Shown: one piece after another, positions 42,748-49,520 of the stretch
How positions within the stretch are numbered: position 1 is the stretch's first letter
Layout of the letters: every line of letters begins with the position of its first letter
Assembly: GCA_050633305.1 (NCBI GenBank)
Contig: JBOEGF010000018.1
Span: 640,001-704,000 of the forward strand
DNA: 64,000 bases
Origin: Nannocystales bacterium
GTDB lineage: Bacteria; Myxococcota_A; Polyangia; Nannocystales; Nannocystaceae
Direction: 5' to 3'
Notes under the pieces: generated by a model
What the model saw: the letters and a program-made list of their open reading frames with translations, nothing else
Told to the model about the DNA's origin: nothing
The model's database searches: none
Program-made: the position numbers and the translations under genes

Positions 42748-43911
42748 ATGGACATCGCTAGCATTGGACCGCTCGACGTCGAACCCGAGCAGGTTCGCCG
42801 AGCGTTCGAGGCCGTTGCCGACCGACTCGAGGGCCGCAAACTCGGCTTTCTCTACCTTCCGCACGACGTCGACGCGGGGCCGCTGTTGAAGGCCGCGTGC
42901 GACGGTCTCGGGGACCGAGTGGTGGGCGCCACGACGGGCGGGGCGGCCTTTACCGAGCGTGGCTTCACGCGTGACGGTGTCGTCGGAGGGGTGATCGGCG
43001 GAAGCGGATTCGACTATTCGGTGGCCGTGGCCCACGACCTCTCCCCGCGCAAGACACAACGCCTCGAAGACGCGTGTGGGGAGCTGGTCGTCGCTGCGCG
43101 GAAGTCGGTGAGCCGTGTTCCCGCGTTGTTGGCCCTTGGCGACGGTCGCTCCATCGATGGCGTTGCTTTAACCGAGACGCTCAGCCGCAGCCTCCCACCG
43201 CACTGGCGTATCTTCGGCGGGACCGCAGGAGACTCCCTCGTCTTCGAGGACCGATCTCGGGTCTTCGTCGACGGCGAGGTGCTCGACGGGGCGGCGGTCC
43301 TCGTGGGCTTGTTCTCGGACTCGAACTGCGGCGTGGCGGTTGGGCATGGTTGGTCAGCCGTGCAGGGGGCCAAGGAACTCGCGGTGAGTGAGATCGACGG
43401 GCACAACCTGATCGGGCTCGATGGGCGCCCCGCGGCGGAGGTGTTCGGGGAGGAGCTACACCGCTTGGGGTTGGTGCCGGATCCCGCAGTGCTCGTCCCC
43501 GACGCGTCGCGGTATCAATTCGGGGCGCGCTCGCGGTTCGGTGAACTCACGGTTCGCGCGGCACTCGAGTTCCCCGGGGACGGCAGCATCCGTCTCGCCG
43601 GAGGGGTCACCTTGGGGACGGTGCTGCAAGTCGTCGCGACCACGCCGGAGCGCCTGGCCGAATCTGCAAGCGAGGTCGGTCGCCGAGCGGTGGCCGAGTT
43701 CCCCGACGGAAGGACCCCTCGGGGCGGGCTGGTGTTCGATTGTGCCGGGCGCTTGGCCTATTTGGAGGACGCCTACCCAAGTCAGCTGCGTGGCTTCTTT
43801 GCCGGCCACGCGTTTCCTGTCGTCGGCGTGACCTCATACGGTGAGATCGCGAAGTTCGGTGGGAGCCTCGAGGGATTCCACAATGCTACCGCCGTGATGG
43901 CGGCATGGTGA
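42748..43911 (+). CDS. FIST domain signal-transduction protein
   Basis: VVGATTGG, IFGGTAGD, GHGW, LDGRPA, FDCAGR, GVTSYGEI, FHNAT. Confidence 0.85.
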   Translation: MDIASIGPLDVEPEQVRRAFEAVADRLEGRKLGFLYLPHDVDAGPLLKAACDGLGDRVVGATTGGAAFTERGFTRDGVVGGVIGGSGFDYSVAVAHDLSPRKTQRLEDACGELVVAARKSVSRVPALLALGDGRSIDGVALTETLSRSLPPHWRIFGGTAGDSLVFEDRSRVFVDGEVLDGAAVLVGLFSDSNCGVAVGHGWSAVQGAKELAVSEIDGHNLIGLDGRPAAEVFGEELHRLGLVPDPAVLVPDASRYQFGARSRFGELTVRAALEFPGDGSIRLAGGVTLGTVLQVVATTPERLAESASEVGRRAVAEFPDGRTPRGGLVFDCAGRLAYLEDAYPSQLRGFFAGHAFPVVGVTSYGEIAKFGGSLEGFHNATAVMAAW

Positions 43912-43915
43912 TCGA

Positions 43916-45709
43916 TTGAAGGCGCTGCTCAAGGTCGGCTACGGGTGCAACGAGCACTGCACCTTCTGCCACACGCAGGACGTCCGACACATCGACGGTG
44001 CATCCGAGGAGGTCGAGGCCAAGATCGATCGTGCGAAGGCGCTTGGCCATTCGATGGTGGTGCTCTCGGGGGGAGAATCGACGATCCGCCCCGAGTTCTT
44101 CTCTTGGGCCCGCCGCATCGCGAGTCTGGACATGGATCTGGGGTTGGTCACCAACGGTCTGGTGCTCGCCTATCCGGACGTCATCGAGCGGTTGGTCAGC
44201 CTCCGTCTGCGCTACGTCTACATGTCCTTGCACGGCGGGGAGGCGCGCATCCACAACCGCCTGGTTCGGCGAGACTCCTTCGAGGCGGCTGCGTCGGCGT
44301 TGAACAACCTCTCGGGCCGCGGGCTCGACCTGACCGCCAATTGTGTCGTCACGCGGCAGAACGTGGAGCACCTCCGGGGCTTGGTCGACCACGTCGCGCG
44401 GCTGCCCGATGTGCGCTTGAAGTTCTCGTGGGTGGAACCAAAGGGCGGGGCCGCTCATCTCCTCGAGACGTTGGTCCCCCCACTCGAAACCGCTGCTGCT
44501 GCCGTGTCGGAGGCGCTCCGTCGATGGGACGAGACGACCGGACGGCCCTCCCAGGCTGTTCACGGGGGATTTCCGTTGTGCTCGTTGCCTGGCTTCGAGT
44601 CGCGCTACGACGACCTACGCACACATGACTACTGGACCATGAGCGAGATCGGCGAGCCCGATCTGTTCCCGATCGACGATCGAAACAAGTCGAAACCCGC
44701 GCCGTGCGAGCGCTGCAATCTGCGCGGAGGCTGCCCGGGACTGTTCCGACTGTACGGCGAACGCTTTGGTCACGACATGCTCCGCCCGCGAGAGGATGGG
44801 GTCCGGAGTAACAGCATCGACTTCGTCTACGAACACATGCAGACCGATGGGTACGCCGAGGGCGACGCCTGCCCGGTTTGGGCCGCGAGCGCGCGCCCCT
44901 ACGATCGGGACCGTCACGTCTTCGTGCGGCACGGCGCGAAGGTCGGCCGTTATCGCGCGCTATCCCGGGATTTCGACGATGACGAACTCGAGCGCATGAA
45001 GTTCGACACGGCGCAGCTGTACCTCGACGCGTCCCGGAAGTCCGCACCGAACGACTTCGCCCGCGACCTCGTCAAGCTCGACCGTAGCGAGCTGTGTCGT
45101 GAGTGCCCGGGCCACGACACCTGCGCGGGGATGTTCGAGCCGCGCTTCGAGGATGTCTTTGGTCGCGATGACGCGGTCGTCCGAGCACACCTCGGGTCGC
45201 TGCGCGGCGACGTGCTCGACGTGGGCTGCGGCGAGATGCCCTACGCCGACACCCTGAGCACGGGAATCGAGTCCGGTGCGCTGCGATATCTCGGTGTCGA
45301 CCCCGACGCTGAGGCCTTGGCGGCCGTTGCGGCCCGTCTGCCGCCGGTTGAGCTCCACGTCGGCACCTTGGCCAGCATCGACCCGCAGCGAACATTCGAC
45401 CACGTCTTGGTGCTGCGGAGCTGGAACCACCTCCCCGATCCGCACGGCTTCGCGGAGCGCGTTGCGACGATGCTCCGCCCCGGTGGCTCCCTGGTGGTCG
45501 TGGACAACGTCGCCTTCGCCCTGTTGAGGACTCCGGCGCAGACACGGGTGGCCCAGGGGTCGGCCGCCCGCTGGGAGCATTGCCGAAACGATGACGACCA
45601 GCAGGCTCACAGCGTCCTCGAGAGTGCCGGGTTGACGCTGCAGCGAAGGCTGCCGATCCGCCCCTCGGGAAGCAACCAGTGGATGCTCCTGTACACTCGC
45701 CCTGCATGA
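43916..45709 (+). CDS. His-Xaa-Ser system radical SAM maturase (HxsC-like) fused to a C-terminal class I SAM-dependent methyltransferase
   Basis: CNEHCTFC (CX3CX2C), LSGGE, LVTNG, SLHG; Cys clusters CERCNLRGGC and CRECPGHDTC; VLDVGCG, FDHV..SWNHL, LRPGG. Context next to HxsD-like genes and HxS-repeat peptides. Confidence 0.85.
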   Translation: MKALLKVGYGCNEHCTFCHTQDVRHIDGASEEVEAKIDRAKALGHSMVVLSGGESTIRPEFFSWARRIASLDMDLGLVTNGLVLAYPDVIERLVSLRLRYVYMSLHGGEARIHNRLVRRDSFEAAASALNNLSGRGLDLTANCVVTRQNVEHLRGLVDHVARLPDVRLKFSWVEPKGGAAHLLETLVPPLETAAAAVSEALRRWDETTGRPSQAVHGGFPLCSLPGFESRYDDLRTHDYWTMSEIGEPDLFPIDDRNKSKPAPCERCNLRGGCPGLFRLYGERFGHDMLRPREDGVRSNSIDFVYEHMQTDGYAEGDACPVWAASARPYDRDRHVFVRHGAKVGRYRALSRDFDDDELERMKFDTAQLYLDASRKSAPNDFARDLVKLDRSELCRECPGHDTCAGMFEPRFEDVFGRDDAVVRAHLGSLRGDVLDVGCGEMPYADTLSTGIESGALRYLGVDPDAEALAAVAARLPPVELHVGTLASIDPQRTFDHVLVLRSWNHLPDPHGFAERVATMLRPGGSLVVVDNVAFALLRTPAQTRVAQGSAARWEHCRNDDDQQAHSVLESAGLTLQRRLPIRPSGSNQWMLLYTRPA

Positions 45710-46170
45710 GTGCTGCGCCTGGTTTTCCCGACGACGCTGCGGAGATCGATGCGGACGACGGTCGCGTGTCGCTGGTTGTCGATGCCGAGCTGTACCCGCG
45801 TGATGCCGTGTATGCGGCGGTCATGCCGATGCTCGCGACGGCCTTCGTCATGCTCGACCAGTCACCGCAGGGGAGGACCCGCATCGAGCTGCGTCCCCGC
45901 GAAGCCTCCAACCCCGGCGCGTTGCGAGCGATGCTCGGGGGGCTCGCGAACGAGCTGTTGGTCGCGACGACCCGATCGGAGATCGCAAAACGACGGGGAG
46001 GCCTGTTGGAAGCTGTCACGCGCCGCGCCGTCTCGGGCGCGATGGGTGCACCGTCGCTCGACGACCTCGAGGGCTTTGATCTGGATGGGGATGCGTTTGA
46101 AGATCCTCTGGGCATCGCCGATTCGTGGGACCGCAGCCACGGCACGCCACAAGGAAAGGACGACGCATGA
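45706..46170 (+). CDS. hxsD: His-Xaa-Ser system protein HxsD-like
   Basis: ATGA overlap with the rSAM stop; VDAELYPRDAVYAA...LANELL...RSEI pattern recalls HxsD. Confidence 0.7.
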   Translation: MSAAPGFPDDAAEIDADDGRVSLVVDAELYPRDAVYAAVMPMLATAFVMLDQSPQGRTRIELRPREASNPGALRAMLGGLANELLVATTRSEIAKRRGGLLEAVTRRAVSGAMGAPSLDDLEGFDLDGDAFEDPLGIADSWDRSHGTPQGKDDA

Positions 46171-46406
46171 GCACGCTTCGATTCCACAAGGAGCTGTATT
46201 CGGGGATGGCTGTCGATGCCGCGATGAAGCGCTTCGAGCGGTTCGCGACCTTCGAGGTCGCCGATGACGCCAGCCACTGGACCGTGGTGGTGAAGGCGGA
46301 ACGCCCGGAGCAGCAGACGCAGCTGGAGCGGGAGCTGGGTAACTTCGCGTTGGGACTCACGATCGAGCGCGGTGGTCCGGACGTCGCCGAAGACGCCTCA
46401 GACTGA
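46167..46406 (+). CDS. Second, shorter HxsD-like protein
   Basis: ATGA overlap, AAGGA RBS; FHKELYSGMAVDAAM...ELGNFAL parallels the upstream protein. Confidence 0.6.
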   Translation: MSTLRFHKELYSGMAVDAAMKRFERFATFEVADDASHWTVVVKAERPEQQTQLERELGNFALGLTIERGGPDVAEDASD

Positions 46407-46452
46407 TATGCTGGGCGGGCGCGACGGTTGAGTGGCGCATTGGAGTGCGAGG

Positions 46453-46776
46453 ATGGACGACGACCGCAAGACAGATGATGGCGACGCTTTGCCGAGCTTT
46501 CGCGCGGCGGCGTCATCCGTGCTGGGCACCGACGCCCGTACGATCTCCGCCCGCGCTCGCTCCGCCGCCGATGAGCCCCCAACTGCCCCGGGAGCTGTGA
46601 TCGGGGGGGAAACGGCGGCCGGTGGTGGCCCTTCCCACTGCAGCCACGGGTCGCACGGCAGCCACGGGTCGCACGGTAGTCACGGATCGCACGGCAGCCA
46701 CGGGTCGCACGGCAGCCACGGGTCGCACGGCAGCCACGGGTCGCACGGTAGCCACGGGTCGCACGGCTCCTGGTAA
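46453..46776 (+). CDS. hxsA: His-Xaa-Ser repeat precursor peptide 1 (HxsA-like), core HCS(HGS)14W
   Basis: 107 aa; acidic leader, then 15 His-Xaa-Ser triplets and terminal Trp. Confidence 0.9.
   Translation: MDDDRKTDDGDALPSFRAAASSVLGTDARTISARARSAADEPPTAPGAVIGGETAAGGGPSHCSHGSHGSHGSHGSHGSHGSHGSHGSHGSHGSHGSHGSHGSHGSW
46636..46770 (+). repeat. 9/18-nt coding tandem repeat (CACGGGTCGCACGGCAGC)n encoding HGS
   Basis: 135 nt, 15 triplets, with alternating TCG/AGY Ser codons. Confidence 0.95.
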
Positions 46777-46886
46777 GAGGGGGCTGTAGGCCCCAGTGCG
46801 AGGCTCAAAAACGCGGTCCATCCAGCCCACGGGTCGCCCGGATCAAGCCGGCAAGCCTGATATCATCCACGAAGGGGGCGCTTCCG

Positions 46887-47189
46887 GTGAATGATCGAAA
46901 CGAAGACCAGACAGCGGACGAGACGAACGACGACACGATCGAGTTGCCGTCGTATCAAGCCTCGCCGTCTGCGGTCCTCGGCGAGAACGCCCGCGAGATT
47001 TCCGCGCGTGCCCGCGCACAGGCCGACGAGCCGCCGGCGGGCAACGACACGATCAACGGGGGCGGAACAATGTTGGCGCCCAGCCACTGTAGTCACGGCT
47101 CGCACGGCAGTCACGGCTCGCACGGCAGCCATGGCTCGCACGGAAGTCACGGTTCACACGGAAGTCACGGAAGTCACGGGAGCTGGTAG
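46887..47189 (+). CDS. hxsA: His-Xaa-Ser repeat precursor peptide 2 (HxsA-like), core HCS(HGS)10W
   Basis: 100 aa, GTG start after GAAGGGGG; leader paralogous to precursor 1; 11 triplets and terminal Trp. Confidence 0.9.
   Translation: MNDRNEDQTADETNDDTIELPSYQASPSAVLGENAREISARARAQADEPPAGNDTINGGGTMLAPSHCSHGSHGSHGSHGSHGSHGSHGSHGSHGSHGSW
47085..47183 (+). repeat. 9-nt coding tandem repeat encoding HCS(HGS)10
   Basis: 99 nt, with more synonymous divergence than the first array. Confidence 0.95.
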
Positions 47190-47243
47190 CCGAATGAGCC
47201 GCCCGATCGAAATCCGGAGGTGGGTGTTCGAGCCCAGCGCTGC

Positions 47244-49520
47244 ATGAGCGACGAATCGCCCAGCAACGAGGGGGCTCCGACCCCGAGCGAAGAGACCGGG
47301 ACAGGTCCCGCCCCGACCTCCGAGAGCGAAGCCGTGCGGCGTCGGCTCACGATGTTCGTGCAGCCGCGCACAAAGATGGAGAGCGCAAAGGGTCGCCGAC
47401 GGGTGCTCTACGTGGGCACCAACCCTCGTGAGTCGGCGAACCTGCAGGAGCTGCTCAACGATGCGGTCGACCCTGGGTTCGGTGTCGAGCATGCGCCCGA
47501 CGAGACGATCGCTGTCGAGATGCTGAATCGCTCGGACAAAGCGTTTCAAGTGGTTGTCGTCGAGCTCGATCGCGACCGACGAATGTGGACTCGGCTGGTC
47601 CGCGACCGACGACTGCCCAGCATTCCCCTGATCGTTGTCGACCACCGGGGCACGCCTGAGGAGCGCTCTCTTCGTCGATCTCAGCTCCTCAAGGAAGGCG
47701 CGGCGGGGTACGTCCGCCGTAGCGAGCTCTCCGGAGCCATGCTCGAGGCGCTTGTGTTCGCTGCGCTCGAGCGCGCACAGATGCGTCAGGCCCTCAGCGA
47801 GGTCCAAGAACGATTCGCCCTGGCGGTCCGCGGAGCCAACGACGGGGTGTGGGAGTGGATTCTCGAAACCGGTGAGATGCACTTCAGCCGGCGATGGCGA
47901 GAGTTGCTCGGCTACGGTGTCGACGACCTCTCCAACTCGGTCAACGAGTGGTTTGACCGCGTCCACGCCGAGGACATCGCGGCCCTCAAAGAGGACATCG
48001 ACGCCCACCTCAATGGGGACAGCCCGTACCACGAGAGTGAGCATCGGATTCGGGCCAGCGACGGAACCTACCGCTGGGTGATCTCGCGCGCCGTGGCCCA
48101 GCGTCAAAACGGACGTCCGGTTCGGATGGCCGGGTCGATCACCGACACGTCCGACTACCGTCTGCGCGAGGAAAAGATCCGAGAGGAGTCGCGTCAGGAT
48201 GCATTGACCGGACTTCCCCGTCGGGAGCCGTTCATGGAACAGCTCGCGCGGGCGGTTCGACTCGCGGACACCGACGAGACGTACTGCTTCACCGCCTTGA
48301 TGGTCGATGTTGACCGCTTCCGGTGGCTCGCGGACTCCATCGGACACCAAGCGGCGGACGGCATGCTCGCCATTCTCGCCCGCCGCCTGGTCGCCTGCGT
48401 CCGCCCTGGGGACACCGTCTCCCGCTTTGGTGGGGACAAGTTCGCCGTGCTGCTGGAGAACCTTCGCGATGTCGACACGGCGACAGACATCGCCAACCGG
48501 ATTCGCCTGTCCGTGCACGAGCCGTTCGACGTCGAAGGACAGACGGTCTACACCACCGTCTCGATCGGGCTGACGACCTCGGACCGAGCGTACGCCGATG
48601 TCGACGAGGTCATCAGCGATGTCGCCGCTGCCGCGAACAAGGCCAAGGAGCGCGGACAGGATCGCCACGAGGTGTTCGATACGAAGATGCGCATCGACGC
48701 ATTGACGACGCTTCGCCTCGAAGTTGCGTTGCGTCAGGCGGTGGAGCGCGAGGAGTTCGAGCTGCACTACCAGCCGATCGTCGATCTCAAGTCCGGCGCG
48801 CTGATGGGCTTCGAAGCGCTCACCCGCTGGCGTCACCCACGTCGTGGCATCGTCTCACCGGCCGAGTTCATCCCCGTGGCCGAGCAGACTGGGCTCATCA
48901 TTCCGATTGGGCGGTGGGCGATTCGTGTCGCGCTCGAACAACTCGGTCGTTGGCAGGCGACGCTCCCGAGCAGCAACGGTGGCAAGCCACTGTCGATGAG
49001 CGTCAACCTCTCGGGCCGACAGATCGCGGACCCGCGGTTGCTCGACGAGATTCGTACCGCGATGACCGAGAACAACATCGCCGAGGACACGTTCCGCCTC
49101 GAGCTGACGGAGTCCGTTCTCATGGACAACTCGGAGTCCGTCTCGCGGACGCTGGCGACCTTGCGGTCCAACGGCGTGCGGATCTGGGTCGACGACTTTG
49201 GTACCGGGTACTCGTCGTTGAGCTACTTGCATCGGTTCCAGTTCGATGGGCTCAAGATCGACAAGAGCTTCGTCGACGCGTTGGACGGGTCGCCACAGGG
49301 CGCGGCGATGATTCGAACGATCCTCAGCCTGGCGTCGAACCTCGGCGTTGAGGTGATCGCGGAGGGGATCGAGTACACGGTCCAGGCCGACCAACTCCTC
49401 GAGCTCGGATGTGTGCGAGGCCAGGGCTACTTGTTCAGCCGGCCGATCGCTGCAGCGAAGGTTCAGGGATACGTCGCCGGAGGCTCAACCGAGCCCGCGG
49501 GTCCGCCTGTCGCATCGTAG
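47244..49520 (+). CDS. Receiver-like/PAS/GGDEF/EAL c-di-GMP signalling protein
   Basis: GANDGVWEW PAS, DALTGLP, RFGGDKF, LHYQPIV..FEALTRW, DDFGTGYSSLSYL, KIDKSF, AEGIE. Confidence 0.92.
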   Translation: MSDESPSNEGAPTPSEETGTGPAPTSESEAVRRRLTMFVQPRTKMESAKGRRRVLYVGTNPRESANLQELLNDAVDPGFGVEHAPDETIAVEMLNRSDKAFQVVVVELDRDRRMWTRLVRDRRLPSIPLIVVDHRGTPEERSLRRSQLLKEGAAGYVRRSELSGAMLEALVFAALERAQMRQALSEVQERFALAVRGANDGVWEWILETGEMHFSRRWRELLGYGVDDLSNSVNEWFDRVHAEDIAALKEDIDAHLNGDSPYHESEHRIRASDGTYRWVISRAVAQRQNGRPVRMAGSITDTSDYRLREEKIREESRQDALTGLPRREPFMEQLARAVRLADTDETYCFTALMVDVDRFRWLADSIGHQAADGMLAILARRLVACVRPGDTVSRFGGDKFAVLLENLRDVDTATDIANRIRLSVHEPFDVEGQTVYTTVSIGLTTSDRAYADVDEVISDVAAAANKAKERGQDRHEVFDTKMRIDALTTLRLEVALRQAVEREEFELHYQPIVDLKSGALMGFEALTRWRHPRRGIVSPAEFIPVAEQTGLIIPIGRWAIRVALEQLGRWQATLPSSNGGKPLSMSVNLSGRQIADPRLLDEIRTAMTENNIAEDTFRLELTESVLMDNSESVSRTLATLRSNGVRIWVDDFGTGYSSLSYLHRFQFDGLKIDKSFVDALDGSPQGAAMIRTILSLASNLGVEVIAEGIEYTVQADQLLELGCVRGQGYLFSRPIAAAKVQGYVAGGSTEPAGPPVAS

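Follow-up and report, generated by a model that had tools for sequence, protein, structure and literature searches.

Two neighboring open reading frames in a window of 64,000 nucleotides from a Nannocystales bacterium almost certainly encode His-Xaa-Ser precursors of the HxsA4 family (NF038313). That precursor family is already catalogued, and a leader/core design is therefore not news in itself. The news is the surrounding system, with its enlarged set of modifying enzymes and a twin-arginine protein, here called protein X; this variant architecture around the precursors was not found described. A literature search, with subscription journals mostly outside its coverage, returned no description of HxsA4 chemistry or function, of the enzyme set, or of X. 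Our whole explanation is that the two proteins are HxsA4 precursors of an expanded myxobacterial His-Xaa-Ser maturation system, and that the product is exported and forms a poly-imidazole metal array. We consider the chances of that combined account to be evenly balanced.

Precursor 1 (positions 46453-46776, forward strand) has 107 amino acids and an ATG start and scores 99.6 bits against NF038313. Precursor 2 (46887-47189, forward strand) has 100 amino acids and scores 64.3 bits; its GTG start follows a purine run, GAAGGGGG, after a further 8 nt. The family cutoff is 55 bits, and both matches begin at model positions 1-2. The predicted cores are HCS(HGS)14W (46 amino acids; 46636-46773, forward strand), which begins at a putative cleavage site, and HCS(HGS)10W (34 amino acids; 47085-47186, forward strand). 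PSHCS(HGS)14W and PSHCS(HGS)10W thus hold 15 and 11 HxS triplets, and neither core contains Lys or Arg; without modification, cores 1 and 2 would have monoisotopic masses of 4466.76 and 3342.31 Da, respectively. A preliminary description of this DNA had given the same repeat counts, the PSHCS start, and the HGSW end, and all are exact in both cores. The leader strings that it quoted as shared by the two ORFs are exact as well; the leaders align locally with a score of 128, compared with 27 ± 5 (maximum, 61) for shuffled sequences, and none of 5,000 shuffles reached 128. The HGS repeats are written in synonymous codons (CAC GGC AGC, CAC GGG TCG, CAT GGC TCG, and CAC GGA AGT), which argues that a protein pattern is being maintained and not a DNA microsatellite. 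Precursors 1 and 2 contain the only (HxS)3+ arrays in the 11-Mb assembly (92% complete) and give its only significant matches to the leader hidden Markov model (HMM). The tandem of two precursors is also found in two genomes of the same genus (G001 and G006). RNAfold of the spacer places a short G+C hairpin, not a T-tailed terminator, directly 3' of the precursor 1 stop (46780-46794, forward strand), and a scan of 45600-47400 found no sigma-70 promoter or terminator.

A pattern scan of one genome per species gave at least 122 stretches, nearly all from Myxococcota, Deltaproteobacteria, Binatia, or unclassified sources, and cultured named strains are among the carriers (L059, L104, L144, and L159). 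We examined 220 arrays, 145 from genome loci and 75 from metagenome loci, with 4 to 64 repeats each. An ungapped leader box could be anchored in 168 distinct sequences. Of the rest, 3 were duplicates, and 49 were excluded because of short length, truncation, or a score under the seed score. The family-wide leader reads LPx[FL]x[KR]x5Lx3[EQ]x2I[ST], with L0 kept in 83% of the 168 homologues, P1 in 97%, K/R5 in 88%, L11 in 99%, E/Q15 in 89%, and I18 in 56%, percentages that lean high because the anchor rewards the seed motif. The anchored profile places the conserved 22-residue box at 46489-46554 in precursor 1 and at 46941-47006 in precursor 2 (both forward strand). The best hydropathy after the box is 0.75 in precursor 1, where no hydrophobic signal region follows, and 0.22 in precursor 2. 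The preliminary description had staked its reading on conservation of the leader in homologues, and the leader is conserved in these 168 sequences. The motif that it singled out, ARxISARAR, did not hold up as stated; it is exact in 8 of the 168, and the conserved positions are those of the family-wide leader. The core frame that it called invariant is so in the two copies of the window, but in the family PS precedes the first His in only 5 of 168 sequences (AQ does so in 77), and a Cys occupies the first triplet, as HCS, in 108. On these alignments, the leader/core reading stands, and ARxISARAR and PSHCS are genus-level motifs. The terminal Trp was required by the genome scan and not by the metagenome scan, where the 66 complete tails comprise 27 ending in W, 10 in HG/A-Q/A-W, 5 in Y, 2 other short forms, and 22 long tails, many of which are unrelated His-rich ORFs. 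Judged from these tails, a terminal aromatic residue is strongly kept, though not always as HGSW.

Several variants of the family were seen along the way. Arrays of 52 to 64 HxS triplets stand behind the same leader in L082, L096, L263, and L271 and could be real or the result of assembly over-expansion. Two genomes of one family, G046 and G057 (L027, L033, L319-L329, and L363-L370), have 5 and 7 HxsA4 precursors and 4 and 3 HxsB genes, respectively; all of their precursors with a visible leader carry RR and a hydrophobic signal, and G057 is 8% contaminated. A further subgroup (L062, L084, L086, L095, L097, L099, L105, L106, L124, L128, and L131) lies away from its own enzymes; its neighborhood is fixed and encodes an HD-domain protein, a sigma factor, and an L,D-transpeptidase that carries a peptidoglycan-binding domain. 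Two matches on viral contigs were rejected, as they hold no HxS array in reading frame.

Ahead of the precursors, on the same strand, lie genes for a 597-amino-acid HxsC-like radical SAM protein with a C-terminal class I SAM-dependent methyltransferase domain (43916-45709; motif CNEHCTFC), a divergent HxsD-like protein of 154 amino acids (45706-46170), and a 79-amino-acid HxsD-like protein of family NF038315 (46167-46406; 70.5 bits, cutoff 41). The best NCBIfam matches of the 597-amino-acid fusion, to HxsC4 (79 bits, cutoff 500) and HxsC (64 bits, cutoff 268), are both below cutoff; Pfam places Radical_SAM at residues 6-158 and Methyltransf_11/25/23/12, above cutoff, at 429-574. The 154-amino-acid protein scores 19.9 bits against TIGR03976, below the cutoff of 50, and lacks the family stretch GAAYxFIDRCYV; its structural model (pLDDT 87) shows a small alpha/beta fold with a long helix. 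The 79-amino-acid protein is homologous to the HxsD family (HHalign probability, 94%). With HxsA4 members beside HxsC-like and HxsD-like genes, and the leader ungapped in 168 of 220 arrays, the original proposal of leader/core precursors for radical SAM maturation is supported. The radical SAM gene is preceded, at a distance of 4 bp, by a FIST-domain (NosP-like) gene (42748-43911, forward strand). Downstream of the precursors is a PAS-GGDEF-EAL gene (47244-49520, forward strand), which also flanks the cluster in L311. Both were rejected as recurring partners, being confined to close relatives; the EAL family occurs at 3 of 80 precursor loci and in this genome.

The remaining enzymes are encoded elsewhere in the genome (G000), on contig C14 and on C18, the contig that carries the window. 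HxsB (C14:59129-60610; TIGR03978, 570 bits, cutoff 370) is not adjacent to the precursors. Beside it is a second HxsD-like copy (C14:60607-61092; TIGR03976, 31.4 bits, below the cutoff of 50), which is 31% identical to the copy at 45706-46170; the HxsB-side copy keeps the conserved stretch, whereas the precursor-side copy has lost it, and the duplication was placed at the time of the operon split. Also ahead of HxsB, together with the second HxsD-like gene, is a gene for a 766-amino-acid protein that contains two radical SAM domains (the B12-type fusion). Its first domain resembles B12-dependent methyltransferase families, below cutoff, and Pfam found no cobalamin-binding domain in the protein. 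Further HxsC-like proteins start at C14:48256, C14:73617, C14:82107, C18:604109, and C18:616180, and an aKG-HExxH hydroxylase starts at C14:75695 (TIGR04267, 95.6, cutoff 40). The enzyme set therefore comprises one HxsB, three HxsD-like proteins, seven HxsC-like radical SAM proteins, and the hydroxylase. Ten intact CxxxCxxC motifs are spread over eight proteins, HxsB included, and one more HxsC-like ORF lacks the motif. All seven HxsC paralogues are below cutoff for HxsC and HxsC4 (best scores, 113 of 500 for NF038332 and 98 of 268 for TIGR03977), and neither the methyltransferase fusion nor the B12-type fusion has a family of its own among the NCBIfam matches. The system genes occupy C14:48-83 kb, C18:604-617 kb, and C18:684-687 kb; in relatives, the same genes form single clusters (L304-305, L306-307, L308, L309, and L310). 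A 319-amino-acid SPASM protein at C18:606810 was dropped from the set, having no match in precursor loci. Near precursors at L058:1519-4371 and L134:5140-10074, an HxsC-like radical SAM domain is fused to a GFO/IDH/MocA oxidoreductase domain, a further tailoring activity. About 7 kb from the first hxs gene of C14, short same-strand genes with an integrase-like ORF (C14:30000-41100) are possibly a prophage remnant.

The same components recur with the precursors in other genomes. In a survey of 80 precursor loci with flanks of up to 10 kb, HxsC-like genes were found at 37, HxsB at 33, HxsD at 31, D2 (the NF038315 type) at 24, and X at 18 (40, 34, 33, 25, and 19 with this genome's contigs), the rSAM-methyltransferase fusion at 14, the 589-amino-acid type at 12, the B12-type fusion at 10, and HExxH at 6 (15, 13, 11, and 6). 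The gene order D-D2-B-A is kept in many of these loci. The precursor is present in 31 of 60 relatives, and solely within those 31 were found HxsB (29 genomes), the rSAM-methyltransferase (30), the B12-type fusion (29), the 589-amino-acid HxsC-like protein (29), HExxH (23), and X (25); none of the six was detected in the 29 precursor-less relatives searched. Of the five genomes in which HxsB, the rSAM-methyltransferase, or the B12-type fusion is missing at least once, four are 71 to 82% complete (G001 counted for two). These counts include kin and hence are not independent; physical clustering is separate evidence. Genome size confounds co-occurrence inside the window's own family because system presence splits there by assembly size: the 10 members without the system are all ≤6.4 Mb and the 26 members with it are all ≥6.6 Mb. 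Outside that family, genomes of 3.4 to 4.2 Mb have the system and genomes of 7 to 11 Mb are without it. The genome comparison shows that the components are inherited together, though scattered over two contigs here. No conserved leader protease was found in precursor loci.

On the basis of these gene sets, leader-directed maturation of the precursors by several enzymes is highly probable. The maturases would recognize the leader box in the cytoplasm, and the RRE-like N terminus of HxsB is the part most likely to do so. The HxsB model (pLDDT 92) begins with a unit of three strands and three helices, which we take to be an RRE from its topology, and the structure that it matches best is that of CteB, a maturase with an RRE (487 columns). 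For HxsD, the predicted structure is a small alpha/beta fold of the ferredoxin/ACT-like kind (best Z, 6.8); none of the 50 matches listed is an RRE, and the RRE role is therefore placed on HxsB, by topology only. The HxsD proteins would act as adaptors for the HxsC paralogues, by analogy with Escherichia coli, where HxsC binds HxsD according to the available text of the one report on that system (Li et al. 2026, PMC13128918). The same text states that cleavage and modification of HxsA require HxsB, HxsC, and HxsD together, that the change is +8 Da (+C/-4H) on SHRSS, that the product acts in the periplasm, and that the change could not be reconstituted; the words Myxococc-, leader, and crosslink are absent from it. 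HxsB and HxsC were already known as putative maturases, as the accessible part of an earlier paper notes (PMC9062424).

In the system described here, the (HGS)n array would be modified repeatedly, by oxidative His/Ser crosslinking, SAM-derived carbon addition, and beta-hydroxylation. The enzyme domains openly supply carbon (the methyltransferase fusion and the B12-type-like fusion) and oxygen (the HExxH hydroxylase). A change of +C/-4H equals one methylation and three losses of 2H, and we infer that it would fit a system with a methyltransferase domain. The HExxH enzyme suggests beta-hydroxylation. The prototype of the aKG-HExxH enzymes acts, in the accessible portion of its description, on His and Asp of a cyclophane-bearing peptide (PMC12636437), which makes a His crosslink plausible as one step.

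The precursors of the window appear to have lost an export signal that relatives retain. A simple hydropathy test gave no signal peptide on either one: the most hydrophobic 11-residue stretch ahead of the core reaches 0.82 and 0.39, respectively, and there is no RR. A hydrophobic signal follows the leader box in about 32 to 35 of the 168 precursors, with L023, L025, and L042 borderline. Exactly at the AR of ISAR in the window's leader, 7 of the signal-bearing precursors have RR and 14 have KK or RK, the ISAR position reading SRR or TKK. L027 passes the Tat model TIGR01409 (20.4, cutoff 16.7) and L121 falls just under it (16.5); there was no match for L028, L033, and L123, which are signal-bearing RR/KK types, nor for L087, L132, and L081. 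A quick HxsB tree of 89 rows, rooted at the midpoint and with a long outgroup branch, puts signal-bearing systems nearer the root and signal-less systems nested, which makes loss the likelier direction. The window's family groups on that tree near entries titled Nannocystis and Nannocystaceae. In ancestral precursors, an export signal of their own would have followed the leader box immediately, and its hydrophobic part would have been lost in this lineage.

Protein X could supply what was lost, the folded product leaving via Tat as a hitchhiker on it. X (173 amino acids; C18:615581-616102) has a twin-arginine N terminus, and TatC is present in the genome; no NCBIfam family beyond weak Tat-signal models, and no Pfam domain, matches it. 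It has 1,113 homologous representatives at an E value of 0.001. Among the best 150 of these, 141 have at least 160 amino acids, and 131 of the 141 have RR and a hydrophobic start, against 54 of 956 neighboring control proteins. X occurs in 68 of 70 signal-less genomes (43/44 plus 25/26) and in 1 of 21 signal-bearing genomes (G040, whose precursor leader is cut off, was assigned according to its family). The X model was built on signal-less lineages, so that divergent homologues may be missed; 17 of the 70 test genomes supplied rows to it, and without them the count is 51 of 53. In G061, X-like genes accompany a signal-bearing precursor; X is missing from G074 and G022. On the tree, the complementarity amounts to two independent pairs (sign test, P = 0.5). 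An AU test did not reject a single origin of the signal-less group (p-AU, 0.755), and X could thus have been gained on that branch for unrelated reasons; the better tree unites the signal-less group, which weakens the two-origin reading of the HxsB tree. The pattern suggests what a hitchhiker carrier would give, though it may rest on one event. We hold X-mediated export of the product tentatively, at somewhat short of an even chance. A MelC1-like caddie role for X was rejected, with no homology claimed; just the signal region matches Tat substrates, weakly (E values of 0.02 to 0.5). An X domain fused to radical SAM proteins (Atlas TM, 0.61 to 0.64; HMM match, E value of 0.003) is a lead only. 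A distant X paralogue with a hydrophobic non-RR N terminus (C18:614122-614487; also L053) lies about 1 kb from X, and L070 has a lipoprotein-like X homologue beside a signal-bearing precursor.

We favor an extracytoplasmic role for the product, most likely that of a rigidified poly-imidazole array that binds metal. Metal binding as its main job is possible but doubtful, and the points cited for it are thin: the His density and the repeat proteins of PF11617 (Cu-binding_MopE, putative metal binding) in 10 of 80 loci. These repeat proteins, of which two were scanned, lie in or beside the hxs cluster (L056, L067, L071, L073, L074, L076, L104, L116, L125, and L134). No family of metal transporters or metal regulators recurs near the precursors in the 80 loci. 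The product could instead stay in the cytoplasm as a metal store or cofactor-like scaffold, with signal loss a real relocation and a separate job for X. In favor of this location are the lack of a hydrophobic signal on both precursors, the absence of any transporter family that recurs next to them, and the chance that the complementarity with X is a single event. But X is kept in those 68 of 70 signal-less genomes, across several families and inside gene clusters (19/80 loci), and the signal-bearing and E. coli forms are exported; we regard a cytoplasmic product as quite unlikely. That the arrays are products of repeat slippage, or a collagen-like low-complexity ORF with no relation to the enzymes, has a practically negligible chance. 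Repeat number does vary widely and collagen matches do appear, yet the collagen and adhesin matches are below cutoff and due to Gly periodicity, and they were discarded; synonymous codon variation, the conserved leader, the gene order D-D2-B-A, and strict co-occurrence all speak against an artifact.

A role in phage defense, in which a matured His array blocks phage DNA entry from the periplasm with X or another protein as its anchor, is another candidate. The two systems have HxsB, HxsC-like, and HxsD-like genes in common, and export signals are found on the precursor or on X. Every one of the 7 genomes of the genus carries the myxobacterial system, which persists even where its genes are dispersed along the chromosome; genus-wide presence in scattered form is unlike a typical defense cassette. 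PADLOC returned generic viperin-like and methyltransferase-like matches only. The one HXS system put to the test, that of E. coli, defends against phage and cannot spare any of its HxS repeats, as far as its available text goes (PMC13128918). That defense, however, depends on a signal peptide and on a domain that binds peptidoglycan, and the model proposed for it relies on the repeats being basic; the precursors here are without all three. Defense is thus unlikely, and the metal array is preferred over it because the features of the E. coli defense are absent and inheritance looks vertical. As to the chemistry, the preliminary description had raised His-to-Ser-Cbeta cyclophanes at each H-G-S, which would cost 2 Da per triplet. 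H-G-S does fit the aromatic-X-X motif, and the accessible part of one study lists HAA, HNR, and HTK as motifs with known His cyclophanes (PMC11499958). The aKG-HExxH hydroxylase travels with the system, and the first one characterized needs a preformed cyclophane, by the available account (PMC12636437); other HExxH enzymes act without cyclophanes. HxsB, however, is far under the cutoffs of the cyclophane synthases GrrM/OscB (46.8 of 310), YhhB (51.2 of 445), and AmcB (47.9 of 425) and nearer to PapB (124 of 340) and CteB. One repeated crosslink would not need seven HxsC paralogues and a methyltransferase, and the E. coli change, in the text available, is +C/-4H (+8 Da), not -2 Da (PMC13128918). 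A poly-cyclophane as originally stated is, on this evidence, very improbable.

For the study of HXS chemistry, the variant offers short substrates that combine an acidic leader with a core of pure repeats, and protein X is a direct, cheap handle on the destination of the product. If the proposal is true, a maturation line with ten radical SAM motifs for a single repeat substrate would be unusually large, the product would be a RiPP exported by Tat hitchhiking, and the system would be a way into carbon-adding (+C/-4H) HXS chemistry. The fullest version would be a secreted, enzyme-rigidified poly-histidine polymer, made when some ten radical SAM domains act on a single substrate together with a methyltransferase and a hydroxylase, and exported by a dedicated carrier, X, that replaced the signal peptide while the front of the signal was kept as leader; we think it rather unlikely that every element of that picture is right.

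Among known systems, the closest is the HxsA4 set of NCBIfam. The precursors, the 79-amino-acid neighbor (NF038315), and HxsB on C14 (TIGR03978) all pass its curated cutoffs, and the precursors have the C-terminal His-Xaa-Ser array behind a conserved N-terminal region that defines membership. Within the His-Xaa-Ser systems generally, HxsB and HxsD-like (NF038315) proteins are recognized here, whereas the HxsC-like proteins fall below the HxsC and HxsC4 cutoffs. Ranthipeptides and sactipeptides differ, each core here having a single Cys and the scores being 124 of 340 for PapB and 102 of 425 for the SCIFF maturase. With the triceptides (HaaB, YhhB, HtkB, and ChlBH, in the portions available of PMC11499958 and PMC12636437) the system shares a His-X-X motif and an aKG-HExxH hydroxylase, but its maturases are outside the cyclophane-synthase families compared, which were GrrM/OscB, YhhB, and AmcB (HaaB and HtkB had no named model among the matches listed); a 316-amino-acid paralogue scores 36.5 of 425 for AmcB. 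Hitchhiker export is an established Tat mode, in which signal-less and twin-arginine partners are encoded together (HybOC and PaoABC, in the available part of PMC4273604), and this genome has a candidate twin-arginine partner, X, a putative cargo without a signal, and the Tat translocase (TatC). Known cargo is an enzyme subunit, whereas here it would be a modified peptide. The E. coli HXS system is similar in its HxS-repeat substrate, in its pair of HxsB- and HxsC-type radical SAM proteins, in its HxsD adaptor, and in the extracytoplasmic destination seen in signal-bearing relatives. Neither ORF matches TIGR03979 (HxsA) at an E value of 0.1, against 230.6 for a canonical HxsA control, and Pfam finds no peptidoglycan-binding domain on the precursors, which stop at the Trp after the repeats. 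By sequence features, then, this is not the E. coli antiphage type, lacking as it does the signal peptide, the peptidoglycan-binding domain, and the basic repeats. E. coli has a four-gene operon, hxsD-hxsB-hxsC-hxsA, whose HxsA carries five basic repeats, a signal peptide, and a peptidoglycan-binding domain, whereas the system of the window has 11 to 15 neutral repeats ending in Trp and about 13 accessory genes scattered on two contigs.
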